A DNA stretch of 64,000 nucleotides, taken from an uncultured bacterium. GTDB lineage: Bacteria; Vulcanimicrobiota; Xenobia; Xenobiales; Xenobiaceae. Location of the stretch: positions 6,463-70,462 of the forward strand of contig CATXCY010000010.1 of NCBI GenBank assembly GCA_958366945.1, in the 5' to 3' direction. The notes below the pieces were generated by a model. It saw nothing but the letters and a program-made list of their open reading frames with translations. It ran no database searches and was not told where the DNA came from. How positions within the stretch are numbered: position 1 is the first letter of the stretch; every line of letters begins with the position of its first letter. This document shows positions 1,547 to 43,567 of the stretch, one piece after another. A program made the translations under genes and the position numbers.

Positions 1547-3757
1547 TTAGGGCTGTCGGACTTTTTGATAAATTTCGTCAAGTCGGCGATTGGGAGTTTG
1601 ATTAAGTTGGACTTTAAATGCTTTTTGTAAGTTTTCAAAGGTTTTAGCGGCCAATTGTGGTTGTTGTATGGCTATATATGCTTGCATAAGCAAATAAGTA
1701 CATTGCTCGTGGAGTGGCTCTAAGCTTATGGCCTGAGAGGTTGTCTCGACCAATTCCGGCCAATCTCTTTGCCTATATTGATAAGAGGCTAGTTCTGTGA
1801 GGGCTTGCAAGGATATGTAATCGAGACGAACTCTCTTTAACGTGGCCCACTCCATAGAGCATTGGGGCAGAAAATGGCCCTGACTTAATTGTTTAATTTC
1901 TTTGAGTAAATGGATATTTTTGTTGGCTCTATATTGTCTCCATAATTTCTCCAAACTTTGCCAATCGGCAATTACTCTCAGGCGTGGGTTGGGTGCCAGA
2001 GCCGAAGAACAACGCGCTATGGGATCAAAATCTGGGCATTTGTCTTTAAAGATCTTTTTAATGATAGATAAAGCTTTCCAAAGGCAAGCTTGTCCGTTGC
2101 TACTTTCAGGCCAAAATTCCTCGATAATTTGCTCACAGCTTAGATATGCACCGTGATTCAATAAACGCAGTAGCAAATGTTTGGCTTTTTGAGTTGTCCA
2201 AAGTTTTGCTTCTATTGTTTCACCATTTAGTTTTACGGAACATTGTCCCAAAAGTTTGAGTTCTAGAGTGGGGGTAGAGAGCGCAGCAGTAATTGATGGT
2301 GGAGATAAGCTTGAGTTCATCGTGTTTATGTTAAGTTGTTCAAGGAAAGTATAGGAAAGTTGCTTTTTCCATCTTGTGGCAAAGCGTTTTAGTTGAGTTA
2401 TATGCTCAGGTGCAAAGCTTTGTTTAGACAACATTTCCACAATTTGGGCACTTTGCCAGCGCAGTAGTTTAACCAACTTGCTTTCCAGCGGACAGGGCAA
2501 CTGGCAATGCTGGTACAGGAAGTTTAACAGTAAAGGTAGCAGCCAGGGCAAGTCTATTTCCATTTGGAGTTCGTGCTTGGCTTTAAGTAAATTACCTAAA
2601 GCTTGGCTAATTTGCTCTGCTTTTACTGGTAAACAGCTTGAACTGGCCAGAATAGATCTAGAATAATGGGGCTCCAATTGCAGCTGATCTAAGATTGTTT
2701 GGGCTTTTTGCAATTCACTGAGGAAATATCGGCAATCGACTTTTATATATAGTAGATACGCTTCCAAGGCTGTCCTAGCCCAGACAGGAGGCCCCAAAGA
2801 CTTTGCTATTTGCATAGCTGATTGTAAGTAATTCAGAGCTTGTTTATTTTGTGAATTGCGCAAACAAAGAGCAGCCAAGCGCAATTGGGCTTTGATACCG
2901 CTTAAAGTTGGCTGTGTGCTTAAATGTTTTAAAATTTTCTCTGCTTCTTGCCAATATCCGCAATGGAAAAACGTAGAAGCCAGAGAGAGGTCGGCTAAGT
3001 CTTCTTTGGCATGGAGGCTGGAAGTATTTGGTTGTAAAGAAGCTGATAAGGCAGAGTCGATTATATATCTGGCCAGAGAAAATTCTGGCTTGGAGTAGTT
3101 TTTGAGGAAGCTGTCCTCCCACAATTCTAGACTTTTAGCAGAATTGTACCAGTGTTTTTGGGCAGATAAAGCTTGAAGGACGGCCCCTATTTCTATTTCC
3201 TGAACTATTGGAGATTCCAAATTCGCTTGCTGAGCCAAACTTTTCGCTAAAAGACCAGCTTGCTGGGCTGTTTTTACTGTATGGTCGCTAAAGCGACCTT
3301 CCAAAAAGCTGTTCAGCAAAGTCTGAATTGACCACGAGTGCAAAGCTTGTAAGCACAAGCTTTCTTCGCGTTGTTGTTGGTGTTGACGGGTTAATTTCAG
3401 AAGGCGGCCGATACGCTCTAAAAAAATGCTCACTTCGAAGGGTTTTCGCAAATAGTCGGCGACACTGAAACGGAGGGATCGTATCGAATCTTCCTCACTG
3501 ACAGTTTTGGTAATAGCTAAAACTGCCGCTTCTTTTAGATAATGATGCACTCTGGAAAGAGTCCGGTAGCTACTTAAATTACCAGAATGCACATCTAAAA
3601 CAACTAAATCGAATAATTTGCGTGAGGAGATCGCGACAGCTTTTTCCCCCCTGGCCGCAGCCATTACGTCAAATCCTTCGTCTTGAAGGACGCTAGCGAG
3701 CTTCTCTCGCAACGGCGCGTCATCTTCAAGCACCAGAATTCGTGCTGTCTTGATCAC
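1547..3757 (-). CDS. Hybrid response regulator: N-terminal receiver (REC) domain, central helical/TPR-like region, C-terminal winged-helix plus BTAD (SARP-type) DNA-binding/activator module
   Basis: GTG start. The N-terminus RILVLEDDAPLRE...FDLVVLDV...YLRKPF is a canonical CheY-like receiver with the acidic pocket and phospho-Asp. The C-terminus LKLLGQCSVKLNGETIEAKLWTTQKAKHLLLRLL...EQIIEEFWPE resembles the OmpR/SARP winged helix. It is followed by a BTAD-like segment (LEPLHEQCTYLLMQAYIAIQQPQLAAKTFENLQKAFKVQLNQTPNRRLDEIYQKV). Confidence 0.6.
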   Translation of the reverse strand: MIKTARILVLEDDAPLREKLASVLQDEGFDVMAAARGEKAVAISSRKLFDLVVLDVHSGNLSSYRTLSRVHHYLKEAAVLAITKTVSEEDSIRSLRFSVADYLRKPFEVSIFLERIGRLLKLTRQHQQQREESLCLQALHSWSIQTLLNSFLEGRFSDHTVKTAQQAGLLAKSLAQQANLESPIVQEIEIGAVLQALSAQKHWYNSAKSLELWEDSFLKNYSKPEFSLARYIIDSALSASLQPNTSSLHAKEDLADLSLASTFFHCGYWQEAEKILKHLSTQPTLSGIKAQLRLAALCLRNSQNKQALNYLQSAMQIAKSLGPPVWARTALEAYLLYIKVDCRYFLSELQKAQTILDQLQLEPHYSRSILASSSCLPVKAEQISQALGNLLKAKHELQMEIDLPWLLPLLLNFLYQHCQLPCPLESKLVKLLRWQSAQIVEMLSKQSFAPEHITQLKRFATRWKKQLSYTFLEQLNINTMNSSLSPPSITAALSTPTLELKLLGQCSVKLNGETIEAKLWTTQKAKHLLLRLLNHGAYLSCEQIIEEFWPESSNGQACLWKALSIIKKIFKDKCPDFDPIARCSSALAPNPRLRVIADWQSLEKLWRQYRANKNIHLLKEIKQLSQGHFLPQCSMEWATLKRVRLDYISLQALTELASYQYRQRDWPELVETTSQAISLEPLHEQCTYLLMQAYIAIQQPQLAAKTFENLQKAFKVQLNQTPNRRLDEIYQKVRQP

Positions 3758-3883
3758 GTATCTATAATTAAATTCTATATAAGTTGATTTCCTGCCACTT
3801 AGTCAGCAAAAAATTTCCAGTTTATTTCAGTGGTGTAGTTTATAACCGTAATAGCTAATTTATCCATAAGGGGGGAAATCTTT
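3758..3883. promoter_or_regulatory. Divergent promoter region between the REC-SARP regulator (-) and the pilus/T2SS-like operon (+)
   Basis: AT-rich 126-bp spacer between divergent starts. A strong RBS (aagggggg) lies just before the ATG at 3884. Confidence 0.35.
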
Positions 3884-4264
3884 ATGCTGAATTTTTTACC
3901 TGTTTTGTTAGACAAAGCTAAAAAACGCACCCTTTCGCCTTATGAATTTTCCAGACGCTGGCACTATATAAAATTAGGTATAGAAGAGCGTTGTGTTGGA
4001 GTGCAGCAAGAATTTGAAGAGGTACGTCGCCAGGCTTCTGGACGTGTTTCTAAAGGCAGAGTAGATAAACTTTTAAAAGGTGTCAGTGAAAAGGAAATTG
4101 AGCATTGGAAAGTGCTGGTTATTTGTATAGAAAACTGGCTGGAGCGCAGCGGCGGTTTTGCCTATTTGCAGCAAGCTCAACATTCCTTTGAAGTTGTCGA
4201 AAAACTTTGGAATAAAAGAATTAAAGCTCTCAAAGCGGTATGGGAAAGAGAAATAATAAGCTGA
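3884..4264 (+). CDS. Hypothetical protein (first gene of pilus/T2SS-like operon)
   Basis: ATG preceded by the RBS aagggggg. 126 aa, charged/helical, no recognisable motif. Confidence 0.5.
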   Translation: MLNFLPVLLDKAKKRTLSPYEFSRRWHYIKLGIEERCVGVQQEFEEVRRQASGRVSKGRVDKLLKGVSEKEIEHWKVLVICIENWLERSGGFAYLQQAQHSFEVVEKLWNKRIKALKAVWEREIIS

Positions 4265-4318
4265 GTTTATCTATAACGGAAGACTGTATTCTGCCGCAAT
4301 TCGAAGGGGAAAGGTATT

Positions 4319-4879
4319 TTGCTGCATACGTACTTAGGACATATTAACAATTGGCAATGGTTGAAAAGCCGAAGTTCGTCTGGCAAGCGCTTCGGCTTAC
4401 GCCACCATAATCAGCGAGGCGGAGCCTTAATTTTAGCTATGATGCTGACAACTGTGATGCTCATTTTGGGGGCCGCCCATCTTTTTGCCTTGCAAAGTGA
4501 ACGCCGATTCTCTGGGGTTCAGGAACGCAATTTACAAGCTTGGTATTTAGCAAAATCAGGATGCGATTATTTTTTCTATTATTGCCAGGGCGGTTCCCCA
4601 TCTTTTTTGCTAGAAGCGCCTGGTAACAAGTTGTCAGCGGAGCAAAAAGCTGATTCTGGTGAGTTGATATTAGCAAAAGTTCCTGTAGTTGAGGGGCTAG
4701 ACCATTATTATTTTGAAATAAGTCGCTTATCTGCTAAGGTCGTAAGAGTTAGAGGAGTAGTCGAAGGAACTTTAAGCAGTAGTGGTAAGCCTACTTGTTT
4801 AGAAACCAGTCTTTATATCGTGCGCGATTCCGCAGGGGGGTGGAAAAATGCAACATACGAACAAAGGCCCAATTTATAG
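4319..4879 (+). CDS. GspK-like minor pseudopilin (type II secretion / type IV pilus family)
   Basis: TTG start 5 nt after the RBS gaaggggaaagg. The N-terminus ...QRGGALILAMMLTTVMLILGAAHLF resembles the GspK N-terminal helix (QRG-A-L, hydrophobic stretch, no Glu at +5). It overlaps the next gene by 32 nt. Confidence 0.45.
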   Translation: MLHTYLGHINNWQWLKSRSSSGKRFGLRHHNQRGGALILAMMLTTVMLILGAAHLFALQSERRFSGVQERNLQAWYLAKSGCDYFFYYCQGGSPSFLLEAPGNKLSAEQKADSGELILAKVPVVEGLDHYYFEISRLSAKVVRVRGVVEGTLSSSGKPTCLETSLYIVRDSAGGWKNATYEQRPNL

Positions 4880-5510
4880 AAGAAAAAGTTTGGGCATTAC
4901 TCTTGTAGAGCTATTAATATGTTGTGCCTTGACGGTTCTTTTCGTAAGTTTGGTCGGTCAACTTAGTTTGGCTTCCGTGCGCAACTATAAGCATAGCGAG
5001 ATGGGCATGAGAGCTATGCGCTCTGCTGCTATAGCCATGGAAGTAATGAGCCGTGATTTGCGCTCTTGTGAGCAAATACTTTGGCCTAAAATTAGTGCCA
5101 ATACTTGGCGCCAAGGCTATCGTCTTTGCGGTGATGATAAGCTTGGTTTCAAATTCATTTTTCGCCAAGCTCCGGCTGCAGACGGTAAAGTTTCCATTGT
5201 TGGCTTTCATTGGGACTCTGAAAGCAAAATTTTAACTAGATGTTTGTATCGGCCAGAATTTAAGCCCAATGCTGATAATTTATCCGATCCCAAGCAAATA
5301 AATTCACGGCGTATTTTAGCACGTGAATTATCTTCTATAAGCGTAAATTCTGTTAATTGGCGCATGCGCGGTGGTTTGCAATTCCTGGAACTCAGTTTAA
5401 CAATCTCTTTTAGTGAACTGGAATCACATAAAAATAAACTTCGCGTCAAAAACGACAAAGAAAAACTATTTAGGAATTTATATACAGAAATTGAAATTTT
5501 GGGGGTGTAG
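4848..5510 (+). CDS. Prepilin-type N-terminal cleavage/methylation domain protein (minor pseudopilin)
   Basis: ATG after the RBS gggggtgg. The N-terminus KSLG|ITLVELLICCALTVLFVSLVG has a class-III signal: G at -1, Glu at +5 and a hydrophobic helix. Confidence 0.6.
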   Translation: MQHTNKGPIYRRKSLGITLVELLICCALTVLFVSLVGQLSLASVRNYKHSEMGMRAMRSAAIAMEVMSRDLRSCEQILWPKISANTWRQGYRLCGDDKLGFKFIFRQAPAADGKVSIVGFHWDSESKILTRCLYRPEFKPNADNLSDPKQINSRRILARELSSISVNSVNWRMRGGLQFLELSLTISFSELESHKNKLRVKNDKEKLFRNLYTEIEILGV

Positions 5511-5516
5511 TTCAGT

Positions 5517-6786
5517 GAAAAAAAAGGCATTGCGTGCTTATACTTTGCTAGAGCTGATGATGGGAATATTTCTGGTCTTTTGCGCTGCTGGTTACTTGCT
5601 GGGAACTTATGCCTTTGGAGCTAGAGCTAGCTTGAGTACAGATCGCTTTACAGCGGCTGTAAACTTGGGCCAAGCAAAAATGGAAGAATTACAAAACTGT
5701 CCATCGGCGCATTTGCTTACGGAGCAAAAAGGCAAGTTCCCTTACCCTCATCAAGATTACTATTGGCATATAAAAGTTTCAGCTTTTAGTAAAGACTTCA
5801 ATTTGCTTACTGTGCGTACAGGCCAAAACGGCGCTCCTTTATGCACATTGCGTCGACTTATCAACACTGCTTCGTACACTTCTATAGATGCTCACATCTA
5901 CGATAGTGAAACTATTTTTACTGACAATAGTTCTAAGTTGCCTTTTGCCAAAGTCTCTTTTTGGGAGCCCTTTGCAACTACGCCTAAAACTGTTGGAGCT
6001 GCTGTCAACTGGCCCACGGGAGCAATTTGTGGCCATCCAGGATTGGGGATCGTTTGGGCTTCGCATAGTCAACAACCCAAGATCATGCAAATGCTTTTTA
6101 ATGCCGAGGGCAAGAATATTGCTTGTAAGACTATTGAAGTGCCTGCTAACAATCAGGGATACAGAGCTCACATAATTGATTTAGCTGCTGATAAGATGGG
6201 CAACTTCCTTTTTTGTGCTGACAGTGCCAATAGAGCTTTGTGGGTGTTAGATGATTCAGGCAGCAGTGGAGGAGACTATTCGTGGAAAGACGGTCTGTGT
6301 TTAGTAAGTAAACAAAAACCTATACAGGATTTGCGCGGAATTGCTTGTGATCAATACGGTAGCACTATTTGGCTTTGCGAAGGTGCTCCCCGTCGTTTGC
6401 GTCAGTTCTATTGGGGAAAAATGCCTAAAGAAGGAGTACAAGAAAAAATTAACTCCTTTTCTGGATGGGGCGAAATTGTGGATGTGCCTTTCTCTGGATC
6501 GGGGCGTTTGCATTCTGTCGCTGTCAATAGTTGGGGGTCTGCCATTTATACTATCGATAATAGTTTCGTTTACACTCTAATTTTTCAAGAAAATGGTGAC
6601 TGTGGTATTTGGCAGCAAATCCCTATGTCGGAAGCGTTGCGCAAAGCTCAACCTAGAGCTTTATGGATTGATCCTGGTAACAGCCGTTTATATATAAATA
6701 CGCTTGCAGGAGGACAGTGGGCAGCGGCGCCTTCGATAGATGGTACTTTAAAAAGCAGTAGTTTCAGTCGGATAAATTGGAGGTAA
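5517..6786 (+). CDS. Pilin-like protein with C-terminal NHL/beta-propeller-like domain (start placed at internal GTG; ORF track begins at 5413)
   Basis: GTG after the RBS gggggtg. The N-terminus VKKKALRA|YTLLELMMGIFLVF is prepilin-like with Glu at +5. The C-terminal ~250 aa show repeated Trp/Gly/Asp-rich blade-like motifs (LRGIACDQYGSTIWLCE, LHSVAVNSWGSAIYTID, PRALWIDPGNSRLYIN). Confidence 0.5.
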
Positions 6787-6791
6787 ATATA

Positions 6792-7823
6792 ATGGAGAAA
6801 ATTTTTATCTACCGCCAACTTGGAGTAATGCTTCGTTCTGGAGTTCATGTTGTCAAAGCTTTGGAAGCTGTCGCTCATTGTTGCAAATATAAAGACGAGC
6901 AAAACATTTGGTTGGAAGTGAGTCAAGAAGTTTGTCGAGGGAGTACTTTAACTCAGGCTTGGAGTTCGCATCCTGAATACTTTGAGTTGATAGAAGTAGG
7001 GCTAATTAAAGCTGGCGAAGCCTCTTGCGCTCTGGACGAAATTTGCTTTGATATTTCAAAGTTCTTTTCTATGGAGTTGGAGCTAAAACGTAAATTAAGT
7101 TCAGCTTTGCAATATCCATTGACGGTATGCTTGGGATTTGCCGTTTTAAGTTGTCTGGTTGCACTACATATTATTCCTTCATTTGCTCCTATCTTTGATT
7201 CTTTGGCCAGATTGCCTTTACCAACTTTAGTTTTATTGGGCTTTGTATCTTTATTGCAAAATAAAGCGCTTTGGGCTATTTGCGGAAGTTCTGTTTTAGC
7301 TTTTTGTCTAGCTTTAAAAACTTATCGCTTTTCTTCATACGGGCAGAGAAAATGGCAAATGTTTGTGCTGACCGTCCCTTTATTGGGTAAAATTGTCAGA
7401 AATATCGTTACCGCTCGTTTTTGCCACACACTGGCTGTACTTTTGCGCAGTGGTTTGCCGTTGAATAGCTCTTTGCAAATAACTGGTTTAGCTTTAGCTA
7501 ACTACCCGTTGGCTTCAGCTTTAGAACACACTATATCTGGAGTTAATCAAGGCTATGAGTTTAGTGAAGCCTTGCAAATAGGCAAGTATTTCTCCAAGAC
7601 ATTCATAAATGCTATGCGTGTAGCTACTGAGGCTAATAGCTTAGATGATGTTTTAGAGCGTTTGAGCAAGTTCTATAACGAACAAGTTAATTGTGATATA
7701 AGCAAATTCACAGTTTTAATCGAGCCCGTTTTGCTCTGTGTTATGGGGGTAGGTACTGCTGGGGTGCTTTTAGCCTTATTTGCACCTTTATATGAATTTA
7801 TCAATTTAAGCGCTGTTTTATAG
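6792..7823 (+). CDS. Type II secretion / type IV pilus platform protein, GspF/PilC family
   Basis: ATG 8 nt after the RBS ggagg. Two T2SSF repeats: IFIYRQLGVMLRSGVHVVKALEAV and TARFCHTLAVLLRSGLPLNSSLQITG...ATEANSLDDVLERL. Polytopic TM segments. Confidence 0.7.
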   Translation: MEKIFIYRQLGVMLRSGVHVVKALEAVAHCCKYKDEQNIWLEVSQEVCRGSTLTQAWSSHPEYFELIEVGLIKAGEASCALDEICFDISKFFSMELELKRKLSSALQYPLTVCLGFAVLSCLVALHIIPSFAPIFDSLARLPLPTLVLLGFVSLLQNKALWAICGSSVLAFCLALKTYRFSSYGQRKWQMFVLTVPLLGKIVRNIVTARFCHTLAVLLRSGLPLNSSLQITGLALANYPLASALEHTISGVNQGYEFSEALQIGKYFSKTFINAMRVATEANSLDDVLERLSKFYNEQVNCDISKFTVLIEPVLLCVMGVGTAGVLLALFAPLYEFINLSAVL

Positions 7824-7843
7824 GTAAGATTATAGGGGGAGAT

Positions 7844-8917
7844 ATGAGTAAAGAACATCATGTAATTATTTATGATCAAGATTGCATAGTTGGTGATATG
7901 CTTATCTATGCATTGCAAAATACAAATTGTAGAATCACTCGCCTAAGGGGGAATGCTGCGCGGCTTATCGACCAATTGCTCAAACAAAAAGCCGATCTTC
8001 TGATAGCCAACTCTGGCCCAAATCTTGGCAATTTATTACATTTGCTTCGATGTTGTCGTGCTAAATATCCTCAACAAAAGCAAATTTTAATTACGGCTGC
8101 TTGGAATAATTTAGATGAAATGCTCAAAGGTGAAAAAATAGAAGCTGTGCTTTTGAAGCCTTTTAAGCTAAGTCAGCTTAAGGAAATAATTGAAAATTTG
8201 CTTCCTGAAGAAAGGCCGATTGCGCAAATGAACTGGCGCAAAAAACTTTTGGGAGTCAAACGATGGATCGTCAATATGTTTCAGGATCTTAAACTTAAAA
8301 ATGTATTGGAGGGAATTAAGCAAAAATTAAAGCGGTTATGGCGATGTTGGCTTTTAAAAAGTATAGAAGATGAACGCTTACAAATGTTCAAGTTGGCTTA
8401 TCACTTTTGTCAATCAAAATTCGCTAGCCATAAGGGCATTTTAGACCTGTGGTTGTATTTAGAATTTTTGGAGAGGCGTTACCTTCTAGCCAAATGTGGT
8501 GTAAATGTTGAGCGTGACGCTTTGCAATTTTATTATGCTACTCTCAGAAGCAAACTTGAGCGAGGCCTTTGCGGTTGGGCTGTTTCACTTAAAGGTGGTG
8601 ACGGCTTGGGCCCAGAACTGGATTCTGCTCAATTTTCAAAGTTTTATTATCGACTCAAAAATAAAGAATTGAGCTTTAGTTGCTTTATACAAGCAGCCCA
8701 AGCCAGACTTGTGCGTTGGGCTCTAAGTCGTCCTTCAGCCGTCAGCATACACAAAATGCTTAAAAAAACACCCCTTACACTTCGAAAAACTTCGTCTTGG
8801 CAATCATTGTCCGACAAGAGACGAATTGAACAACTCAAAGCAGAAGCCGAAATTCTAGCCTTGACTTCGACTAATGAACACGAACTAAAAGAAGTTTTTC
8901 AAAAAGTGTGGTGCTGA
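7844..8917 (+). CDS. Pseudo-receiver domain protein with C-terminal helical domain of unknown function
   Basis: RBS gggggag. The N-terminus HHVIIYDQD...ADLLIANSGPN...LLKPFKL has a receiver-like fold, but the phospho-acceptor Asp position reads LLIAN, so there is no Asp. Confidence 0.45.
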   Translation: MSKEHHVIIYDQDCIVGDMLIYALQNTNCRITRLRGNAARLIDQLLKQKADLLIANSGPNLGNLLHLLRCCRAKYPQQKQILITAAWNNLDEMLKGEKIEAVLLKPFKLSQLKEIIENLLPEERPIAQMNWRKKLLGVKRWIVNMFQDLKLKNVLEGIKQKLKRLWRCWLLKSIEDERLQMFKLAYHFCQSKFASHKGILDLWLYLEFLERRYLLAKCGVNVERDALQFYYATLRSKLERGLCGWAVSLKGGDGLGPELDSAQFSKFYYRLKNKELSFSCFIQAAQARLVRWALSRPSAVSIHKMLKKTPLTLRKTSSWQSLSDKRRIEQLKAEAEILALTSTNEHELKEVFQKVWC

Positions 8918-8973: not shown

Positions 8974-9354
8974 CTACTTTTTATTTTTTGTACCGCCGGT
9001 AAATACTGAACCAAAACGGGCCAACTTGCTAAAAACGCCAAAGTGTTTTCTTATAGCTTTAATTTGCTCGGCACTGACAAAAATGCCTTGACAATGTTCA
9101 CATCTTGGTAAAGTTAAGTCAAATTCATCGATGTGCTCATTTTTGAGATCGAAGCCACAGTGCGGGCATTTCATGTAGTGAATGTTGGCCGCTTGTTCCT
9201 CTTCTTGCTTAGCCTGTTTCTCTCTCGTCTCTCTGGTCTTTTTTAGTTCGAGTAGCAGTCTTTCTTCATGCTCACGCAAGCCTCTGGCAGTATCATGTTT
9301 GCTGGCTAGTTGGTCTTGAGTTTTGCCTCTTCCGGACAAACTATCATTACTCAT
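8974..9354 (-). CDS. Zinc-ribbon domain protein
   Basis: CPHCG...x24...CEHCQG four-Cys ribbon after a charged coiled-coil-like N-terminus. Confidence 0.4.
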   Translation of the reverse strand: MSNDSLSGRGKTQDQLASKHDTARGLREHEERLLLELKKTRETREKQAKQEEEQAANIHYMKCPHCGFDLKNEHIDEFDLTLPRCEHCQGIFVSAEQIKAIRKHFGVFSKLARFGSVFTGGTKNKK

Positions 9355-12577: not shown

Positions 12578-13846
12578 TTAATTGATAACTTGGTGCAACT
12601 CTTTGCGGTTCATACAATTGAGATATATCTCTTCCAGGACGTATTTTACTTCATGATCGTTGCGCTTTTGCAATCCTTTTGTCACGATCAGAAAACGAGC
12701 AGCGAAGCTGTCGGGGATCTTCTCGAAAGGCATATGTAACATGTTCAGCATATGGCCCAAAATAATACGTGCAGTACGACTGTTTCCATCTTGGAAAGGA
12801 TGAATATGCACAAACTCGTTATAAGCGTAAGCGCACAAATCGAGAGCTTCTTCAAAAGTAGAAGGCTCGCAGCCTGATAGATTGTCAACTAACTGGCGCA
12901 ATCGCTGAGGAATTTCGTTAATAGGAGCAGGCTTGAAGTTGGGGTTATTAGCTATGACCACCTCATGATCTCGATAAACGCCACCAAAGTTTGTGTTGGC
13001 CATGGCTAAATGGTGATATTCGCGCAAAATATCTACGGTCAACCTTTTGCCGTCGCGACTGTATTCTTGCATCTTTTGCCAAGAATTTTCGTAACACTCC
13101 TTAGAAGCAGGATCGAACATTTCCGAATCTTCTTTTTCGACGCTTTCTTTTATCTCTTCTCCCAAAGGAGAAAGCCCCCAATTGCGTCCCGCTAGGTTTT
13201 TGTTATGAAAGAGTTCCATAGCCGCTTGCAACTGGGGATCGTCTGGATTTTGAAAATTCTCAGTGCGTCCTTCCAAAAATTGCTCTAAGGGCATCTTTCT
13301 CCTAAAAAAGAAAGACTTGGCACGTTTGATCTTTAAATAGTCGCATAAACCGTCCAAGAATATGTTCTCTACCATGCGTCCGGTAAATGGCTCATAGCTA
13401 TAAATAAGCAACAGAGCATTATCTACTAAACGACAGAGTAAAGCTGGATCTAAAAGCTCGGCAGGTACATCTCGATTATTAAAATGATCGCTTCTGTAGG
13501 CTTTTTTCAAGAAAGCAATCATTTGTTCGGAAAAATAAAAATTGTAGTCGCAATTAGAAGCTAGAGCGAAAGAGAGCGTTTGTCGCAAATTCTTAGCCAC
13601 TTGCGATTTATTGTTAAGAATGTAGTGATCGCGACTATCGCAGACAATTAGCCCTTCTTCTTCTAAGTCATACAGGGGCTTAATTAAAGAACGCTCACGA
13701 TCGACATGTAAGATGTGAGCTAGTCTGGTCAGAGCAATCCCTTCCGGGCGTCCGGCTACGCAAGCAAAAAGATCCCATCTGGTAATATCTTGAGAACTTA
13801 AATGAAAGCTGTGATTTGAAGGGAGAGACATTTTTGCAATACCCAA
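12578..13846 (-). CDS. Fic/DOC family protein with N-terminal winged-helix-like region
   Basis: Fic active-site motif HPFQDGNSRTAR (HxFx(D/E)GN(G/S)RxxR). Confidence 0.8.
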   Translation of the reverse strand: MGIAKMSLPSNHSFHLSSQDITRWDLFACVAGRPEGIALTRLAHILHVDRERSLIKPLYDLEEEGLIVCDSRDHYILNNKSQVAKNLRQTLSFALASNCDYNFYFSEQMIAFLKKAYRSDHFNNRDVPAELLDPALLCRLVDNALLLIYSYEPFTGRMVENIFLDGLCDYLKIKRAKSFFFRRKMPLEQFLEGRTENFQNPDDPQLQAAMELFHNKNLAGRNWGLSPLGEEIKESVEKEDSEMFDPASKECYENSWQKMQEYSRDGKRLTVDILREYHHLAMANTNFGGVYRDHEVVIANNPNFKPAPINEIPQRLRQLVDNLSGCEPSTFEEALDLCAYAYNEFVHIHPFQDGNSRTARIILGHMLNMLHMPFEKIPDSFAARFLIVTKGLQKRNDHEVKYVLEEIYLNCMNRKELHQVIN

Positions 13847-24864: not shown

Positions 24865-25881
24865 ATGGTAAAAATAAGTTCTGCCCAAAGTGGCACTTTT
24901 GCTGACGGTAGTATCGCAATATCTAGTTATAAAGCCAAAGCAGGCTACAGCGATAAGCCTGATTATCAAGCCGAGCAAATAGACAAGGGAGACAGTCTGT
25001 CCTTAACAACAGATATTGGCTCCTTTTTTAATTTTAACCATTTGTCTTCTGGACATCTTCGTCAAGGTACATTAAGTACATCTTCAACAAAGCAAGAACA
25101 AGTTTCTCCAAATTCTCTTATACCCAGACACTTAAGTGAGCAAGAAGCTGAAGCTTTATCCAACCAGCAACTCAAAGCAGAATATGGACGCCATAGTCAA
25201 ATATCTTCTGATTCGGAAGCCAAACAGCAGAAATGTATTAGTCGCTCCATTGTCTTAAGCCAAAATAGGGAGCAAGCTTTGCATATGAATAGGCTGAGCT
25301 CTACTTTGAAACAAAGCGGCCGAAAATTGGCACAGCAGGCTTTGGCTCAGATCGCTTCTGGAGTGGCACTTTACGCTTCAGGAGCGGCTATGGAAGCTGC
25401 GGGTAAGGCTATGCTTGGTTGTCCTTTTACCAAAGCTGCTGGCATGGCCCTCGTATCGAAAGGCAAAGCTTTGAAACAACGTGGTATGCAAATGCGCCAA
25501 TATGGGCAAAAATTGGAGCTTAGTTCTAAAAATTTATTGAGCTCTGGGCTCAGCTTAGGAGCTTCTGCCAATAAACAGATTAACTATGTTAAAAACGCTT
25601 GGCAAGCTCTCAATAATATTTATCAACAAATAAAAACTGTGGGAAATTTAGCCAAAAGTAGTATGCTTTGTGCTGAAAATGTGGGACGTAAACGTGGCCT
25701 TTCTTTTACTTCCACGCCTAGTGGAAATAAATTAAAGGTTGGATTGTCTGCTTCCAAAATTGACAATGCGGTTGTGAGCACGTCAAGTAAGGTAACCAAT
25801 TCGAAAAGTTCAGCCGTTACCAGCAGTGCCGTAAAGCCCCTGGCTTTAGTCATGGGGAGTATGCCAATTGAAGTAAAATAG
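24865..25881 (+). CDS. Hypothetical Ser/Ala/Gln-rich protein (first gene of paralog cassette)
   Basis: Strong RBS agagggggaag. 338 aa, low complexity, no signal peptide. Helical Ala/Gly/Met-rich central segment. Confidence 0.5.
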   Translation: MVKISSAQSGTFADGSIAISSYKAKAGYSDKPDYQAEQIDKGDSLSLTTDIGSFFNFNHLSSGHLRQGTLSTSSTKQEQVSPNSLIPRHLSEQEAEALSNQQLKAEYGRHSQISSDSEAKQQKCISRSIVLSQNREQALHMNRLSSTLKQSGRKLAQQALAQIASGVALYASGAAMEAAGKAMLGCPFTKAAGMALVSKGKALKQRGMQMRQYGQKLELSSKNLLSSGLSLGASANKQINYVKNAWQALNNIYQQIKTVGNLAKSSMLCAENVGRKRGLSFTSTPSGNKLKVGLSASKIDNAVVSTSSKVTNSKSSAVTSSAVKPLALVMGSMPIEVK

Positions 25882-26031
25882 CGGCGTAATTTTATACTTC
25901 TGCCAATCACTTTGCCTGCTGCTTTTGTCTATTCGGAGGCAAAGTGATTGTTCATTATAGAAAATTTTATATTCCATTGCTGGATAAAAATACAGGAAGC
26001 CCTGCAATACAATAGAACTTTCTACAGTATC

Positions 26032-27249
26032 ATGGCTAAATTTCCAGTGCTAGACGATAACTTTCCACGTATTATTCCTTCTTTCAGACAGTTAGTAAAA
26101 ATTATGTCCGAATGTGTGGCCGGCGGAGTTAGCTTAACTTGTACCGCCTTTGAGTTCCGCCAATGTGATGCTGCTTTAGGAACAGCTTTGGGCAATTTTA
26201 TGGAAGTTTTGCGCTTAAAAGAACTTCCTCCAGAGCGCAATGAAGCAATTAACGAAATAGTGCTTTTGTTTACGCGTATGAGTTCCGAAATGGCCAAATT
26301 AGAAACAGCTCTGAGTATGGATGCTACAGCTGCGGCCGTTTCTTGTGTGGCCAATATTTACGATCACTTAAAAGATTTGGAAGAATTAAATATGGACTTG
26401 AAAGCCGCTGTTGGCGATAGCCATATTTATTCCGAAGTGCCGGTGGTGGACAGTTTACTGCGAGCGGGCAATTTTGTCTTAGAAACTAACGGAGCCGAAT
26501 GGGAAGCTCTGAGTGCCCGTTTGGAAGCTCTTATTCCTCAGTGGAATGAGATCGTCTCTGGTACTGGACTGCCGGAAGAACTAATTCGCCACGACAGAGC
26601 GTTGGAGCGCCTCGTTGAGGTACTTAACGAGCGAAATTTAGAAGCTTTGCCAAAAGTTCTGGAAGAAGTAAAATCCAGCGGCGAAGATCTGGTCAACTTC
26701 CAAGATAGTCAAATAGACACCGATACTTCCTCTGTAGTTTTGTGCCCCTATTGTGGTAAGCCTATGATCGAGGGTAGTAAGAAGTGCTTCTCTTGCGGCG
26801 CCAGGATGCCAGAAGAATTTGAGCGAGATTCTACAGCCGACAAAGATTCTGAAAAAGGCGAAGCGGCTTATGAAGGCATGCCAGAATATGTACAGCGTAT
26901 TATGGATATCGCTCAAGAACTTCCCAATAATGCCAAGATGATTCGTCCTTTCAAACGTGCTGTGGGAGAATTGCGTAGACGTGTAGCCGATGCCAATTCG
27001 CGTATCAATAAAATGGCTTCTTCTAAAATTAAGACCACTCCGGAAGAACGCGAAAATATTGATGGCATCGTAGATTTAGCTAATACTTGCATAGAAAATC
27101 TCTCTAAAGCCGTTGAGCTTTTGGAGGAGTTTGAACCACCTGTCGACAGGTTCCATTTGCAATGTGCTTTGGAAGTTATGGTTAAAGCGGTCAAAGAAAT
27201 GCGTGGCATGGGCGGTTTGGCTCAAAAATATCGCAATTCTAAAAAGTAA
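26032..27249 (+). CDS. Zn-ribbon-containing helical protein, paralog A
   Basis: N-terminal motif FPVLDDNFPRIIP and central CPYCG...CFSCG ribbon. It aligns along its length to the next gene. Internal ATG chosen (ORF track starts at 25948). Confidence 0.5.
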   Translation: MAKFPVLDDNFPRIIPSFRQLVKIMSECVAGGVSLTCTAFEFRQCDAALGTALGNFMEVLRLKELPPERNEAINEIVLLFTRMSSEMAKLETALSMDATAAAVSCVANIYDHLKDLEELNMDLKAAVGDSHIYSEVPVVDSLLRAGNFVLETNGAEWEALSARLEALIPQWNEIVSGTGLPEELIRHDRALERLVEVLNERNLEALPKVLEEVKSSGEDLVNFQDSQIDTDTSSVVLCPYCGKPMIEGSKKCFSCGARMPEEFERDSTADKDSEKGEAAYEGMPEYVQRIMDIAQELPNNAKMIRPFKRAVGELRRRVADANSRINKMASSKIKTTPEERENIDGIVDLANTCIENLSKAVELLEEFEPPVDRFHLQCALEVMVKAVKEMRGMGGLAQKYRNSKK

Positions 27250-27294
27250 TCAGTTCTCTTTTGCGTGCACATGACACAGCTCATTGGAGGTACC

Positions 27295-28485
27295 ATGGTA
27301 GATAAGCTGCCTAAGCTAGATGATTCTTTCCCCAAATTGATTCCCCATTTGCGTACTTTTGTAAGTGGTTTGGAACATTGTATAGTCAATAAAGAACCTC
27401 TTTCCCAGCTTCGTGAAGAATTACACCAATGCGATGTTGTTATGTCTGCTTTTGTACTGGCTTTTAAGTACAGTGTGCGCGGCTATGACTACAACGAAGA
27501 AGAACTGGAACATATCGCTCAAGTTTATGCCGATATTGAAGGTGTCGGTGGTGTGCTTTCTTCTCTCATTTGTGATTTAAAAGACGATGATGTCGAAGGC
27601 GCTGTACGTGATGTTAATGCTCTGGTCAATCAGTTGAAAGAAACTGAAAAAAGCTTAGCCAAGCTCGAAGAACTAAGAAATTCCAAGGCAAAGATTTCTG
27701 AATTTGACAGCATTGATGGAGTCCTTAAAGCTGGTCAGGCCGTGGTTGAGGGACGTCGTGGTTGGGAAATGTTGGAAAATCGTCTCGACTATTTGCGCCC
27801 ATCTTTTGATAAGCTGGTCGCTTGCAACTCTTTGCCTGAGCATATAGAAGATTATTGCGAAGCTTTAGATAATTTATTTAGAGTTTGCGAATGTCAATCT
27901 GTAGAAGAATTACCTGCCGCCTTAGAAGCTTTAAAAGCGACTGGTGATGTACTGATAGAAAAATATAAAGAAGCTAAAGCTAAACAAGAAGCTTTGGCTG
28001 CACAACAAGTTTGGCATTGCCCTAAGTGTGGTTGTGAAGTCAGTGAATGGGATAAGCGTTGTCCTTCTTGTGGAATGAGGCTGCCTGAGCGTATCGTCAG
28101 TGAAGTAGGGACTGAGAATAATTGTTTATTGCCCATGTTACCTACATGCGTGCAAACAATTTTAGATAGCGTAAGCTCTTTGCGCGAAGGTAATGATGCT
28201 TGGGCCGAGTTCTCAGCTGGATTGCATGAATATGGCAAATTTGTAGGCGAGCTTAAAGATAGGTACGCCTCTTTGCCAGAAAGTGTTTTTAATGGCGCTG
28301 AAGCAGAAGGTGAGTCTTTGATTCTATCTCGCGAAGCTATGGAAGAAGGACTCACTAAATTAGAAAATGCCTATTATGTATGTGAACACATGCAAAATGG
28401 TGGCGAAGTTAGCGATGAGGAACTCGATTCTACGCTAGAAAGCATGATTGAGGGAGTAGAACAAACACGTCAAATAGCTGGTTAA
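27295..28485 (+). CDS. Zn-ribbon-containing helical protein, paralog B
   Basis: ATG after the RBS ggagg. N-terminus LPKLDDSFPKLIP, ribbon CPKCG...CPSCG, acidic helical regions. Collinear with paralog A. Confidence 0.55.
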   Translation: MVDKLPKLDDSFPKLIPHLRTFVSGLEHCIVNKEPLSQLREELHQCDVVMSAFVLAFKYSVRGYDYNEEELEHIAQVYADIEGVGGVLSSLICDLKDDDVEGAVRDVNALVNQLKETEKSLAKLEELRNSKAKISEFDSIDGVLKAGQAVVEGRRGWEMLENRLDYLRPSFDKLVACNSLPEHIEDYCEALDNLFRVCECQSVEELPAALEALKATGDVLIEKYKEAKAKQEALAAQQVWHCPKCGCEVSEWDKRCPSCGMRLPERIVSEVGTENNCLLPMLPTCVQTILDSVSSLREGNDAWAEFSAGLHEYGKFVGELKDRYASLPESVFNGAEAEGESLILSREAMEEGLTKLENAYYVCEHMQNGGEVSDEELDSTLESMIEGVEQTRQIAG

Positions 28486-28513
28486 AATTTCCCAAAGTTT
28501 GTCTTTTTCTATA

Positions 28514-28569
28514 ATACCCGCAAAAGTACGCGAGCTGCTTAGAAGTGCGTACAAAGCGGGTATTTTTTG
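28514..28569 (+). terminator. Strong rho-independent terminator
   Basis: ATACCCGCaaaaGTACGCgagctgcttagaagtGCGTACaaaGCGGGTATTTTTTgt: nested hairpin plus T-run. Confidence 0.75.
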
Positions 28570-28680
28570 TGATGAGTTAATTAAAAATATTCTATAAAAA
28601 ATTTGCCTGCAACTCTTTACTTTTAGGCCTTGTGCCTTGAAAATAAGGACAAGTCTAGTTTTAAAAGAGAGGTAATTCTC

Positions 28681-29814
28681 ATGGGTGTTTTATCTACTGC
28701 TTCTACTATAGCTATGATGACGGCTAACGATTACAAGAATGCTCAAGCCATCTATGCTAATATGCAACAACAGGCTACGCTTGCCCAGAATGGTGGTATG
28801 GGAGTTCTTACCCAGCAAGCTCTTAAGGCTGCCTCCGCGCAGAATATGGAATTGCTTAATCAGCAAGCCGCGCAAGCCGCTAAAGCTTCCTCTGGCTCTT
28901 CTTCTATCGATTCTATATCATCTTCTTTTAGTGACCAGATTCAGCAACTGACCTCTTCCAATCTTTCTGTCACTGATCAGATTAGCCAGATTACTTCCGC
29001 TTCTGGTATGTCTGCTTCTTCTGCTGCTGGTTTTTCTACTTCTACAGATTTTACTCAGGCTATTATTGATAGCATTTCTTCTGCTAGCAAGTCTTCTTCC
29101 AGCTCCAGCACCAATAGCGACGTAATGACTAGCGCTACCAATATGCTGAAGACTTACTTCAAACAGTTCTGCCCTGGCATGAGCGATGAGCAAATTTCTG
29201 CTATTTGCAAATTTGCCGCCTCTCAGTATGGTGACCTGGCTAAGGCCATGGATATGAGTTCCTTAACTTCTAGCGTTATGGGCTCTTCTTCTACCGGCAG
29301 TGCCAGCAGCTCTGGAAGTGCTAGCAGTGTAGGTAACAATGGCAACTACGGCGCCAATAAGGGCGTAAGCGGTTTGCTTTCCGATGCTGGCGCTATGGTT
29401 GGTATGACTGAGCAGTCTAATGCTGCTTCTATTAACAAAATCACCAAAAAGAGTGGTATCAATTGCCAGACTACCCCTTGGTGCGCTGCTTGGGCAATGA
29501 ATATGCTCAAAGACCATGGTGTGTTGGATACTTCTTCTTGCTCCAACGTCAACTATTGTCCCACTATCGTAAACTGGGCCAAAAAAGAAAATATTTGGGC
29601 TGGTCGCGGTTCTTACACTCCTCAAGCTGGTGACGCGATCCTCTTCGACTGGCAGGGTGATGGTACTTCCGATCACATTGGTATCGTAGAAAAAGTCGCC
29701 AACGGTAAGGTTTATACCATTGAAGGTAACTCTTCTGACTCCGTGGCCAGAAGAAGCTACAGCTTGAGCAGTAGCAAAGTTATGGGCTATATCAACTGCG
29801 CCGCTCAAAAATAA
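28681..29814 (+). CDS. Polymorphic-toxin-like protein: low-complexity N-terminal region, conserved internal module, C-terminal CHAP-domain peptidoglycan amidase/peptidase
   Basis: ATG after the RBS agagagg. C-terminus TPWCAAWAMNML...AGDAILFDWQGDGTSDHIGIVEKVANGKVYTIEGNSS has the CHAP Cys and His motifs. No signal peptide. Confidence 0.6.
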   Translation: MGVLSTASTIAMMTANDYKNAQAIYANMQQQATLAQNGGMGVLTQQALKAASAQNMELLNQQAAQAAKASSGSSSIDSISSSFSDQIQQLTSSNLSVTDQISQITSASGMSASSAAGFSTSTDFTQAIIDSISSASKSSSSSSTNSDVMTSATNMLKTYFKQFCPGMSDEQISAICKFAASQYGDLAKAMDMSSLTSSVMGSSSTGSASSSGSASSVGNNGNYGANKGVSGLLSDAGAMVGMTEQSNAASINKITKKSGINCQTTPWCAAWAMNMLKDHGVLDTSSCSNVNYCPTIVNWAKKENIWAGRGSYTPQAGDAILFDWQGDGTSDHIGIVEKVANGKVYTIEGNSSDSVARRSYSLSSSKVMGYINCAAQK

Positions 29815-31044: not shown

Positions 31045-33303
31045 CTAATCAAACATTTTATCTAATTCGGCTTTTTTAAAGCGTTGAGGCTCGTGACCAG
31101 TCCAGTCGATCACAAAATAAATCTTTTCTGGTTGTTGTATTTTGCTGAAAAAACGTATTTGATCTGTAGGTAGCATTTTATAATTGTAATACCAGCCAGT
31201 GGGAGAGGGTTTGGAAATTCCTTTGGCATGAAGATGGCGAGCACCTTTAGGGAAGAAGGGCATAACTCGTGCAGCCAATTTCTCGCCTAAAACTTTGCAC
31301 CCCATATCGCCGCGCATTATTAAGCGGAGGTGGGGAGCGAAGAGTAAGCTGCTTTCAAAGCCTACCGTCTGCCCTTGAAAATCGCCTTCTACGGTATCGC
31401 GAATTATCAATCTTTGTTCTGTAGGCTTAAAAAGAAGCTCACGTCTTAAACTTAAAACTAAACCGTTAGTTAGATGAGCTTGACGCCTTGTCCACAAGAG
31501 TACATCCGCTCCTCCTTTTCTTTCCCTATACAAAGGAGAGCAAAAAACGTAACCCTCTTTATGTATCTCAGTTATATTGTCAGGAAAATCTATGCGTTCG
31601 GAAGCGTTCAAATCTCCCAAATAGGCCACTTTAAAAGGCGAAACTTCCTCGGCAAGTGTGGGAGCGGAATGGGAAAAAAAGCTATTTAAATAAGGATAAG
31701 CGCTGCTAGAAATAGTGGAAAAACCAGCATCTATAAGGAATGGCTCATTTTCTATAGTTAAAAATATTGATAAGAAATCACAATGTGGCTGGGGCACAGC
31801 TTGGTGTAAATTGGGAGCTTTATAAAAACCTTTAGTTAGATCGGCAGTTGGACAACCTTTTATAATGGCCTGAGAACTGTTGGCTCCCCAATGATCACGC
31901 ACACTGCCTATACCATTGGCAACGAAATAAAAACTTGTCTCTTCAGGAAAATAATCTCCTCGACCAGCACCAAATTTGGCGGTGAGCTCTGGAGTAGGAG
32001 CTACCCACCAAGACACTTCCGCAGGCATACGCTCTATGCCACATAAGAATTCGTCATGGTCGAAAACTATGGCACCCAGACATAATAAAGTCTGAATATA
32101 CTCGGATATAGAGGATTGCCTTCCCATAAATCCTGGAGCACAAAATGTGCCTATATGAGGAGCTACTTTATTGGTGCCGTTAATAGCTTGCAAAGCTTCA
32201 AGAGAAATGCGCAGCGCTTCTGATAAATATTGCGGAGTTTGGGTATGATTGCTTACATGCTGCAATACAGGCAATAGCATCCATTCTAAAGCCGCACAAT
32301 GAGCGCATAAAGATCCACTTAAATGTAACCCGCTACTTCCAAACTCACGTTCAATAAGGTCTAAAAGCTTAGACTCTGCAACTGAACGCCACCGCTTAGA
32401 TAATTTTAATTCAGGAAAATTGCTTGCGAATACATAGAGACAGGCTGCAGCAGGGAACGATAAAACTGTATCGTAGCGAAGGTGCCAAGCCAAAGCTGCT
32501 CCGTGTACGATCATCGTTTCCATTATTTTCGCGAAAATACGGGGCGTAAAAGCAGAGCTGTGTAAACACATATCAACGGCAATCATCCAGTTCATCAGCC
32601 TGATGGCTACCGTATCAAAATTTAGCCAGTTTACACCTATCCAAAGAGGATTGCTGGCTCCCCATTCAGTCGCTTGAATGAGAATCTCGGAAGCGTATTT
32701 GTCCTGTTTGCTAAGCCAATAAGAGCGGGCCAAAGTGAGAAAATGATAATGCTCATTTAGCTCCCAGGTACGATCCAAAGAAGGATACTTGGCTAAGGGA
32801 GATTCGCTCAGATTGGCTTTATTATCCGGAGATAAAACTTTTCTCAGCTCTTTAACGGCAGTTCTAGGCCAGCTTCTAGAGCAAAAATCGGAAAACCAAT
32901 CAATGTTGCCAGTGAAAGTTTCTTGTTGGTTGGAAAGATAAGAAGAAAAAGTATGCCTCATCGCTTGCTGCGTCGAGTCACTGAGCTCTTTGACAGCTGA
33001 AGGAGAGGATTTAAACGCATTTGCAACTTCCTTGGTGTCTGAATGTCGCAAAAATAGCGTAGGGCGACTGCGGTCGCGGAAGTGATTGAAGAGCGCTTCC
33101 GCGGCCTTATCAGGTTGATCGTGCAAAGAATAATTTTTTGCTTCCTCGATTCCAGGTGCTCCAGAGAATTGCCCAAACAAATATTTGTCTTGCAAATCGT
33201 AAGTAGAACAACTGTCGTAAGCCAAATCGACCTGAGCCTCCAAGCTAAATGGCATGGAAGAAGTGATTATATTCTTACGTAACCAAGGAAACATATTATC
33301 CAA
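31045..33303 (-). CDS. Heparinase II/III-like (alginate-lyase superfamily) protein
   Basis: 752 aa. N-terminal alpha/alpha toroid-like region with W/N/R-rich motifs (WIGVNWLNFDTVAIRLMNWMIAVD) and a C-terminal beta-sandwich-like region. Immediately downstream of a DegT aminotransferase. Confidence 0.55.
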   Translation of the reverse strand: MDNMFPWLRKNIITSSMPFSLEAQVDLAYDSCSTYDLQDKYLFGQFSGAPGIEEAKNYSLHDQPDKAAEALFNHFRDRSRPTLFLRHSDTKEVANAFKSSPSAVKELSDSTQQAMRHTFSSYLSNQQETFTGNIDWFSDFCSRSWPRTAVKELRKVLSPDNKANLSESPLAKYPSLDRTWELNEHYHFLTLARSYWLSKQDKYASEILIQATEWGASNPLWIGVNWLNFDTVAIRLMNWMIAVDMCLHSSAFTPRIFAKIMETMIVHGAALAWHLRYDTVLSFPAAACLYVFASNFPELKLSKRWRSVAESKLLDLIEREFGSSGLHLSGSLCAHCAALEWMLLPVLQHVSNHTQTPQYLSEALRISLEALQAINGTNKVAPHIGTFCAPGFMGRQSSISEYIQTLLCLGAIVFDHDEFLCGIERMPAEVSWWVAPTPELTAKFGAGRGDYFPEETSFYFVANGIGSVRDHWGANSSQAIIKGCPTADLTKGFYKAPNLHQAVPQPHCDFLSIFLTIENEPFLIDAGFSTISSSAYPYLNSFFSHSAPTLAEEVSPFKVAYLGDLNASERIDFPDNITEIHKEGYVFCSPLYRERKGGADVLLWTRRQAHLTNGLVLSLRRELLFKPTEQRLIIRDTVEGDFQGQTVGFESSLLFAPHLRLIMRGDMGCKVLGEKLAARVMPFFPKGARHLHAKGISKPSPTGWYYNYKMLPTDQIRFFSKIQQPEKIYFVIDWTGHEPQRFKKAELDKMFD

Positions 33304-33315
33304 GCCGCAGATCTC

Positions 33316-34416: not shown

Positions 34417-34768
34417 AAATATGTCTCCTTCTATCCGTTCATCAGGAGCGGAACCGCTTTGATGGCAGAAAATTTCTCAGACTGAGTAAAATTTTCCGTC
34501 GGCAAAATATAGGTGATAAAAAATATCCAATCGGATTTTTGGCGTAGTATTGAAAATGCTTGTCTAAATGCCAAAACAGCGAGGGACGTACCGCTGCTCC
34601 AAAAACTGGAAGCACGGTTCGGCCAAATTGTTTCAGCGGAAGTATAGCACTCCAAAGACCTTACAAGCCACCTATTTTCCAAGCATAAGGGGCAAGCCCT
34701 GCCAAAACAGGTGATTTTTTTGTAACGAGGTCAAGTGAAGCGGCCGAAACTACGTCAAAAGTATGTTA

Positions 34769-36583: not shown

Positions 36584-36624
36584 ACGTCTCCCAGAATAGT
36601 TTATAAAAGTCCCAATTTACCAGG

Positions 36625-37131: not shown

Positions 37132-37259
37132 GATCTAAATTTTTGCCAAATTGGTGTCGACTCCTTGCCTTTATGTAATGTGGTAACAGCCGACGCTTCT
37201 TGACCGAAGTAAAACCTCTCTAACTGTAGATTCTTTTATCAGTGCATTGACACTATTGG

Positions 37260-43503: not shown

Positions 43504-43567
43504 AAGGTTGTTTTGACAGCTCTCGGACTTTTATTGCATGTATATGCATTGATTAATTAGCGGATTG

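Follow-up and report, generated by a model that had tools for sequence, protein, structure and literature searches.

The closest described counterparts of the locus considered here are the minor-pilin operons of type IVa pili (T4aP), exemplified by the FimU-PilVWXE-PilY1 cluster of Pseudomonas aeruginosa and the PilY1 clusters of Myxococcus xanthus. In these, low-abundance pilins, including ones of PilX_N type, are proposed to prime the filament on a platform of the PilC family, and a β-propeller protein, PilY1, is proposed to sit at the pilus tip; the operon stands apart from the gene for the major pilin, and a two-component system controls it. The tip of the type II secretion system (T2SS) offers a second counterpart, in which a cap lacking the glutamate at position +5 (GspK) and two minor pseudopilins that bear it (GspI and GspJ) are found beside a GspF-family platform, with a bulky extra domain on one subunit of the tip. 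A third is provided by the modular pilins (Streptococcus sanguinis PilB with its vWA module and PilC with its lectin module, CofB of enterotoxigenic Escherichia coli, ComZ of Thermus), where a small N-terminal pilin module is joined to a functional module that is probably displayed at the tip (PMC8179133). Each of these arrangements is echoed in a six-gene cassette, A to F, found at positions 3884-8917 of the window, that is, of the whole 64,000-nucleotide stretch analysed here (contig CATXCY010000010.1 of an uncultured bacterium of the Xenobiaceae, class Xenobia). The cassette is a lineage-specific variant of the type IV filament minor-pilin and platform operon, undescribed until now but within known principles. 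We read it as the tip or priming-pilin and platform module of a type IV filament machine of the T4aP/T2SS clade whose motor is encoded elsewhere, and give this reading a probability of roughly 60%.

The cassette consists of six closely packed plus-strand open reading frames (ORFs), separated from a divergent regulator gene by a short spacer:

1547 to 3757, minus strand: gene R, a protein with a REC domain, a central TPR-rich region and a C-terminal BTAD domain (SARP-like), divergent from the cassette
3758 to 3883, no strand: spacer of 126 bp between R and A, a putative divergent promoter/operator
3884 to 4264, plus strand: gene A, the first cassette gene, a 126-amino-acid cytoplasmic protein without family match
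4319 to 4879, plus strand: gene B, a pilin-like protein of PilX_N/GspK type without glutamate at +5
4848 to 5510, plus strand: gene C, a prepilin with the class III signal KSLG|ITLVE, overlapping B by 32 nucleotides
5515 to 6786, plus strand: gene D, a modular pilin (LRA|YTLLE) with a predicted disordered linker and β-propeller
6792 to 7823, plus strand: gene E, an inner-membrane platform protein of the PilC/GspF family, 343 amino acids
7844 to 8917, plus strand: gene F, a CheY-fold receiver-like domain followed by a lineage-specific helical domain

Gaps between neighbouring cassette genes range from -32 to +54 nucleotides, and a G-rich Shine-Dalgarno sequence precedes each gene. For two genes the start differs from that in the mechanical ORF list: D is taken to begin at GTG 5515 rather than 5413, and E at ATG 6792 rather than TTG 6777, both starts being conserved and called on public contigs. 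The resulting 343-residue E protein is recorded as an exact match in 51 blocks of public contigs, and the TTG-start version has no record. An earlier note on this DNA, made from its letters alone, had described the genes from B to F, all of which are present where it placed them, together with the divergent regulator; the first gene, A, was missing from its list. A generic scan of the operon for sigma-70 promoters and terminators returned nothing above shuffle expectation. GC content across the cassette is 0.38-0.43 per kb, against 0.431 for the whole window. An origin in a mobile element or prophage was considered and is unsupported, with GC near the window value, housekeeping flanks and no integrase-type matches.

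The names attached to homologues of D and E are Candidatus Bruticola and UBP9, both belonging to the class Xenobia in the Vulcanimicrobiota/Eremiobacterota, and their source samples are gut and rumen metagenomes. The six genes are syntenic in at least ten species-level lineages, across which the identity of D falls to 41%. When peptide patterns specific to E were searched against 185,579 species genomes, the gene was found in eight species, all of Xenobia type; tblastn recovers R and A to F in the same order in these eight genomes, except on one short contig (L015) that ends inside D, and the order is likewise kept in three loci designated L007, L009 and L022. In the lineage represented by L024 and L025 the flanks are different (AnmK lies upstream, an M23 peptidase downstream), yet A to F are intact; the cassette is therefore a conserved unit to which R is usually, but not always, attached. 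Comparison of the window with two species, at synonymous divergence (dS) of 0.4-1.4, gave ratios of nonsynonymous to synonymous substitution (dN/dS) of 0.05-0.16 for all seven genes (0.06-0.11 for E, 0.09 for R), with reading frames intact. These are thus not pseudogenes, and the possibility, raised in the earlier note, that the locus is a pseudogenised remnant is refuted. Its description of the operon as 'partial' needs qualifying: the same composition recurs between different flanks, and the cassette is a complete six-gene unit rather than a truncated operon.

The platform protein E is unambiguously a member of the T2SSF family, with two T2SSF repeats (PF00482, 8e-42 in Pfam), as the earlier note had proposed, and three transmembrane segments (hydropathy peaks at residues 110-128, 146-177 and 313-331). 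Among solved proteins its sequence is closest to M. xanthus PilC (9e-41, covering PilC residues 83-412), against 1e-5 for GspF domains. Among the NCBIfam models it scores 190.6 bits with GspF (cut-off 424, alignment starting at profile position 60), 182 and 173.5 bits with PilC models (cut-off 700), 158.8 bits with HofC (cut-off 401) and 99.4 bits with ComGB (cut-off 240), and so falls below every equivalog cut-off. Beyond the orthologues that belong to cassettes (at least 44% identity), its nearest relatives, at 35% identity, are three proteins (P0026-28) that have in common with it a short N-terminus and the motifs RFC and LANYPL. They are encoded by stand-alone short PilC-like genes (L010:2436-3614 and L012:2904-3962) lying between TspO and Na+/H+ antiporter genes. 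On these outgroup contigs two pilT-like genes are found about 4 kb from the platform gene, and on L010 a pilB-like gene (MshEN plus T2SSE) lies about 9 kb from it; relatives of A to D or of F were not found on either contig. The comparison shows the platform clade of E in a T4aP-type context, one in which it works with ATPase genes that are not adjacent.

Each of three further proteins, B, C and D, carries one hydrophobic helix at its N-terminus, together with conserved features of a class III signal; in C and D these comprise a short leader ending in Gly or Ala, the hydrophobic helix and an invariant Glu at +5. B passes the Pfam PilX_N model (28.7 bits, E-value 1.3e-06, cut-off 25.5). Its leader is long, its invariant Gly34 precedes ALILAMML, and no Glu stands at +5 in an alignment of eight orthologues; the protein has a single N-terminal transmembrane segment and a mature length of about 150 residues, and we propose it as the cap subunit. 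Its description in the earlier note as GspK-like holds for the N-terminal segment lacking Glu at +5 and not beyond, B being half the size of GspK and failing the GspK model (25.1 bits against a cut-off of 130, with only the first 53 positions aligned); hhalign against E. coli GspK gives a probability of 30%, over the helix only. C carries the prepilin motif noted earlier (G|ITLVE), and its residues G16, T18 and E21, the last being the Glu at +5, are invariant in eight orthologues. The mature protein is about 204 residues long, its match to Pfam N_methyl is below the cut-off (E-value 0.0059), a PDB profile search returns geopilin and PilA N-termini only, and hhalign against GspJ gives a probability of 27% over 109 columns. 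Assignment of B, C and D to GspH, GspI, GspJ or GspK was tried with NCBIfam, PDB profiles and hhalign against the E. coli K-12 Gsp proteins and was rejected: only the N-terminal helices match, and no equivalog-level match to GspK, GspI or GspJ over the globular domain is reached by any of the three.

D is the most distinctive of the pilin-like proteins. Its Y9 (+1) and E13 (+5) are invariant in 12 sequences, and the residue at -1 is Ala8 in most lineages and Gly in two deep ones (P0011 and P0013). An AlphaFold model, built from a 12-sequence alignment (predicted local distance difference test, pLDDT, 72.7), predicts a helix at residues 2-60, a four-stranded sheet at 70-117, a disordered stretch at 120-162 and a β-propeller at 168-419. 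The first two elements would form a pilin fold (a long α1 helix plus an antiparallel β-sheet) in a module of GspI size (residues 1 to about 118), tethered by a linker of about 45 residues to a propeller of some five to six blades that resembles NHL and YVTN repeats. Foldseek places the β-rich domain among six- and seven-bladed propellers (best 2e-9; 6-phosphogluconolactonase-like, YVTN, NHL and WD40), and the D profile matches the designed six-bladed Pizza propellers weakly (3e-5); the pilin-propeller fusion recognised by the earlier note is borne out by the model together with these matches. No Pfam family, PilY1 (PF05567) included, is found in D at an E-value of 0.1 or below, and its top 50 fold matches are generic six- and seven-bladed propellers without a PilY1-type signature. 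The pilin module scores 18.8 bits with the XpsI model (cut-off 150) and reaches a probability of 17% against GspI in hhalign. Homologues form 13 clusters only, at 41-99% identity, all of Xenobia type. Modular pilins with a grafted module shown at the tip are established and widespread (PMC8179133), and by analogy D may be regarded as one of them and as a functional parallel of PilY1, the tip adhesin that is not itself a pilin; as modelled, it is our proposed tip adhesin or receptor.

The first and last genes encode cytoplasmic proteins. A has no transmembrane segment, contains two invariant cysteines and is present in all cassette lineages; neither the single sequence nor a set of ten members found a match in Pfam, NCBIfam or PDB. 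F is recognised as a receiver by sequence only weakly (E-value 0.005), but its model (pLDDT 74.8, from a six-sequence alignment) predicts a REC fold at residues 1-120 with a TM-score of about 0.8 to CheY, Spo0F and KdpE in Foldseek, the receiver-like domain of CpaE also being among the matches; the helical domain that follows (residues about 150-355) found no specific structural match in the same search. The CheY-like (βα)5 fold thus comes with its Lys and Thr (D11, D13, T84 and K105 are in place, T84 being retained and K105-P106 invariant), but without the phospho-acceptor Asp at the end of β3, which is replaced by Asn56. Asn occupies this position in the window protein and in seven of eight orthologues (eight of nine rows), whereas in the wider family the acceptor reads N/N/N/E/D/D. 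The name pseudo-receiver, given in the earlier note, therefore suits this lineage and not its deeper relatives, which have Asp or Glu. Relatives at an E-value of 1e-10 or better number only six among 1.84 billion representatives. In M. xanthus the pseudo-receiver protein FrzS acts on pili. F resembles FrzS-type proteins in architecture and setting, with its CheY fold without phosphorylatable Asp, its helical domain and its link to a pilus locus; it differs from them in a C-terminal domain without structural match and in the Asp or Glu of its deeper orthologues.

The divergent gene R encodes a protein of 736 residues with a Response_reg domain (2.1e-14) that retains its acceptor Asp ('DLVVLD') and a BTAD domain (1.4e-09, 38.9 bits against a cut-off of 22.1). 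The earlier note called it a REC-SARP regulator, and the REC, the BTAD and the divergent orientation all stand; the winged helix-turn-helix of SARP type was not detected by any profile, Pfam giving no Trans_reg_C at an E-value of 0.1 or below and a PDB search with residues 484-736 returning TPR proteins only, although the motif LELKLLGQCSVKLNGE... resembles the start of such a domain by eye. R adjoins A divergently in eight GTDB species and in L022. The spacer between them contains the repeats ATTTCC (3787-3792), ATTTCC (3813-3818) and ATTTCA (3824-3829), the last two 11 bp apart, as well as a TATAAC -10-like element (3841-3846), TATAAT (3763-3768) and a GGGGGG Shine-Dalgarno sequence (3870-3875). 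An alignment of seven species contains the invariant blocks TTTCCTGC and AATTTC..TTTATTTCAG, which are conserved although dS in the flanking genes is 0.4-1.4; the three repeats and the TATAAC element belong to these unchanging parts of the spacer. Such a layout would fit a direct-repeat activator site overlapping the -35 region, a candidate binding site for R, and divergent synteny in most lineages together with the conserved blocks points to control of the cassette by R. The GTG start of R itself (3757) has no Shine-Dalgarno sequence and is preceded almost immediately by a conserved TATAATTAAAT block (3763-3773), for which reasons the R mRNA may be leaderless. R also varies between lineages in length and company: in Ca. 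Bruticola it has 492 residues, the central TPR region (about 230 residues) being absent; in a rumen lineage (L007:2440-7504) it is adjoined by a 900-residue HisKA/HATPase kinase and in a deep lineage (L022:2800-6527) by a 608-residue GAF-containing protein; and in the window genome an MFS transporter gene stands in place of such a partner.

What the cassette does not have nearby is a motor. A motif scan of all frames of the 64 kb found neither a T2SSE Walker A motif nor further prepilin motifs, and Pfam scans of window ORFs of at least 150 amino acids found no ATPase, secretin, prepilin peptidase or major pilin, those ORFs instead encoding housekeeping and glycan-modification functions (dnaG, rpoD, a DEAD helicase, a radical-SAM cluster and the dcw cluster). 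Further queries by tblastn against the window and 20 related loci, made with E. coli K-12 GspC, D, E, G, H, I, J, K, L, M and O, PilT and a PilB fragment, matched only GspF, and the 6 kb past the right end of the window contain nothing relevant. The earlier note's statement that ATPase, secretin and major pilin are lacking from the window thus agrees with motif, Pfam and tblastn searches alike, and no complete T2SS or T4aP machine is found in one locus in the window or within 10 kb on either side in related loci. A homologue search with a PilB fragment taken from a sister-clade contig was filled by generic PilBs, with no Xenobia-labelled match among those listed, and cluster look-ups for the ATPase likewise gave no Xenobia label.

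The earlier note's suggestion of a minor-pilin or tip module with a GspF-type platform fits every test that was run, and several points nevertheless weigh against our reading of it as part of a larger filament machine. ATPase, prepilin peptidase, major pilin and secretin are absent not only from the 64 kb but within 10 kb of the cassette on at least 12 related contigs; a motor encoded in trans is an assumption, since the searches covered the window and its flanks and the PilB homologue search was swamped by generic PilBs. The outgroup contigs L010 and L012 that place the platform clade beside pilT-like genes are labelled only 'bacterium'. E lacks the N-terminal extension of 60-80 residues found in canonical PilC and GspF proteins (the first repeat starts at residue 64 in E. 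coli GspF and at residue 72 in the canonical PilC P0034), and, scoring about equally with GspF and PilC models, it leaves type IV pili and T2SS inseparable at the level of sequence. The pilins could be placed in no GspH-K orthogroup, in a comparison made with GspH, I, J and K. In most lineages the -1 residue of D is Ala instead of Gly, and moderate confidence attaches to the models of D and F (pLDDT 73-75), whose underlying alignments were shallow (12 and six sequences).

Drawing on T4aP and T2SS by analogy, and starting from the gene content, motifs, folds, conservation and local absence of motor genes described above, a mechanism can be outlined. B, C and D would enter the inner membrane by their N-terminal hydrophobic helices, and a prepilin peptidase encoded elsewhere would cut B after Gly34, C after Gly16 and D after Ala8. 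The three might then form a small initiation complex on E, with B, which lacks Glu at +5, capping the top as GspK does, and with D adding its β-propeller head on a flexible linker. A PilB/GspE-type ATPase acting in trans would drive E, so that a major pilin, also encoded elsewhere, is polymerised beneath the complex and the propeller is carried to the filament tip as an adhesin or receptor; gene fusion would in this way replace the binding of PilY1 to minor pilins. R would probably switch on transcription through the conserved ATTTCC/ATTTCA repeats overlapping the -35 region. F, presumably independent of phosphorylation in this lineage, and A would serve as cytoplasmic accessory factors, their most likely role being to couple or gate a platform that is shortened at its N-terminus. 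The phylum has a single cultured member, a diderm that uses type IV pili to move (PMC9758169).

The same genes could instead encode the tip of a T2SS pseudopilus, of GspI/J/K type, together with its GspF, such that a short pseudopilus capped by B, C and D would drive folded exoproteins out through a secretin whose gene lies elsewhere. Several observations lean that way: GspF gives E its best NCBIfam score, the N-terminus of B and the pilin module of D match GspK and XpsI/GspI weakly, one minor pilin without and two with Glu at +5 reproduce the GspK-GspI-GspJ pattern, and the phylum is diderm. Yet all these scores lie far under equivalog cut-offs, the PilC models follow GspF closely, and M. xanthus PilC is matched much more strongly than GspF domains. 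No GspC, D, E, G, H, L or M is encoded nearby, in the window or the related loci; B lacks the α-domain of GspK and would mature to about 150 residues against about 300. On their contigs the nearest outgroup platform genes are accompanied by pilT-like genes, for which T2SS has no use, and a propeller head on a 45-residue tether would suit a surface adhesin better than the tip of a periplasmic piston. We consider the T2SS alternative unlikely, and less favoured than a reading of T4P type. Lower still stands a Com-type pseudopilus for DNA uptake, in which minor pilins on a short ComGB-like platform would prime a filament that binds DNA. E is as long as ComGB and spans the whole of its model (residues 9-343 against 4-332 of 332), B has a faint ComGG match (E-value 0.063), and ComZ is an example of a modular minor pilin that functions in DNA uptake (PMC8179133), but ComGB scores lowest of the six platform models, comGA, comEA, comEC and comC are absent from window and flanks, gene order and content are unlike those of comG operons, and the phylum is diderm; this makes DNA uptake a very improbable function for the cassette.

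The missing motor might also be taken at face value, the locus being either what is left of a lost pilus system or a device able to run without a PilB/GspE ATPase. In no lineage examined is a motor, peptidase, secretin or major pilin within reach, E is without its N-terminal extension and F has lost its phospho-acceptor. We know of no ATPase-independent type IV filament. Purifying selection makes decay or autonomy highly unlikely: every gene has an intact frame and a low dN/dS at appreciable dS, and the cassette is kept down to about 41-46% identity. Sister-clade platform genes, moreover, have pilT-like genes on their contigs, and pilB as well in the case of L010. Bolder, and a long shot in our estimation, is the idea that Xenobia have no canonical PilB/GspE partner and that A and F replace the N-terminal extension of PilC as a new coupling or gating module, which would make of the cassette a self-contained, signal-gated, tip-only pseudopilus with a propeller receptor, powered or triggered by unprecedented means.

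Taken as a tip and platform module with its motor elsewhere, the cassette departs from its described counterparts in several respects. Compared with T4aP it has three pilins rather than four or five, its propeller is fused to pilin D and lacks the PF05567 signature, where PilY1 is a separate protein, its platform gene lies inside the minor-pilin operon rather than beside pilB and encodes a protein without the N-terminal extension, and two lineage-specific cytoplasmic genes, A and F, are added. Compared with T2SS, the extra bulk comes from a propeller at the C-terminal side of the smallest pilin module and not from an α-domain inserted in GspK, B, C and D fall below the GspI, GspJ and GspK models, and GspC to GspE, G, H, L, M and O are not adjacent. 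Among modular pilins, D stands out in having a propeller without database signature as its module, a long predicted-disordered linker (about 45 residues) and a distribution confined to Xenobia.

Elsewhere in the window, a gene convergent with F (8974-9354, minus strand) encodes a 126-residue zinc-ribbon protein with a weak MqsA-like CxxC...CxxC match; its position is kept in most cassette lineages, and a polysaccharide deacetylase gene and mutL come after it. A 422-residue Fic-domain protein (12578-13846, minus strand) is syntenic in all relatives examined. Three consecutive proteins without family, two of them with an internal zinc-ribbon, precede a CHAP-domain peptidoglycan hydrolase-like protein at 24865-29814 (plus strand), and an Hsp70-like ATPase of 604 residues is paired with a DUF2760 protein at 34769-37131 (minus strand). 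A cluster at 31045-47996 (minus strand), with a heparinase II/III-like protein, two DegT/EryC1 aminotransferases, four radical-SAM proteins (two with B12-binding) and an FAD amine oxidase, probably represents an unusual pathway for modifying sugars or glycans. The dcw cluster of cell-wall genes extends over 48853-63047, and tRNA and Rfam scans of the whole 64 kb found no tRNA gene and no Rfam family at the gathering threshold.

To our knowledge nothing is known of the surface structures of Xenobia, an uncultured, animal-gut branch of the Vulcanimicrobiota, and in the literature on the class we found no mention of pili. The cassette is a strong candidate for the organelle by which these bacteria attach to their hosts or to particles. 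It does not overturn current models. It does represent a natural experiment in the design of pilus tips, in which a propeller fused to a pilin arrives at a solution that PilY1 reaches without being a pilin, and it offers leads on how such filaments may be initiated and regulated: a platform gene with a short N-terminus is placed together with the priming pilins, and the acceptor position of F is Asp, Glu or Asn according to lineage.

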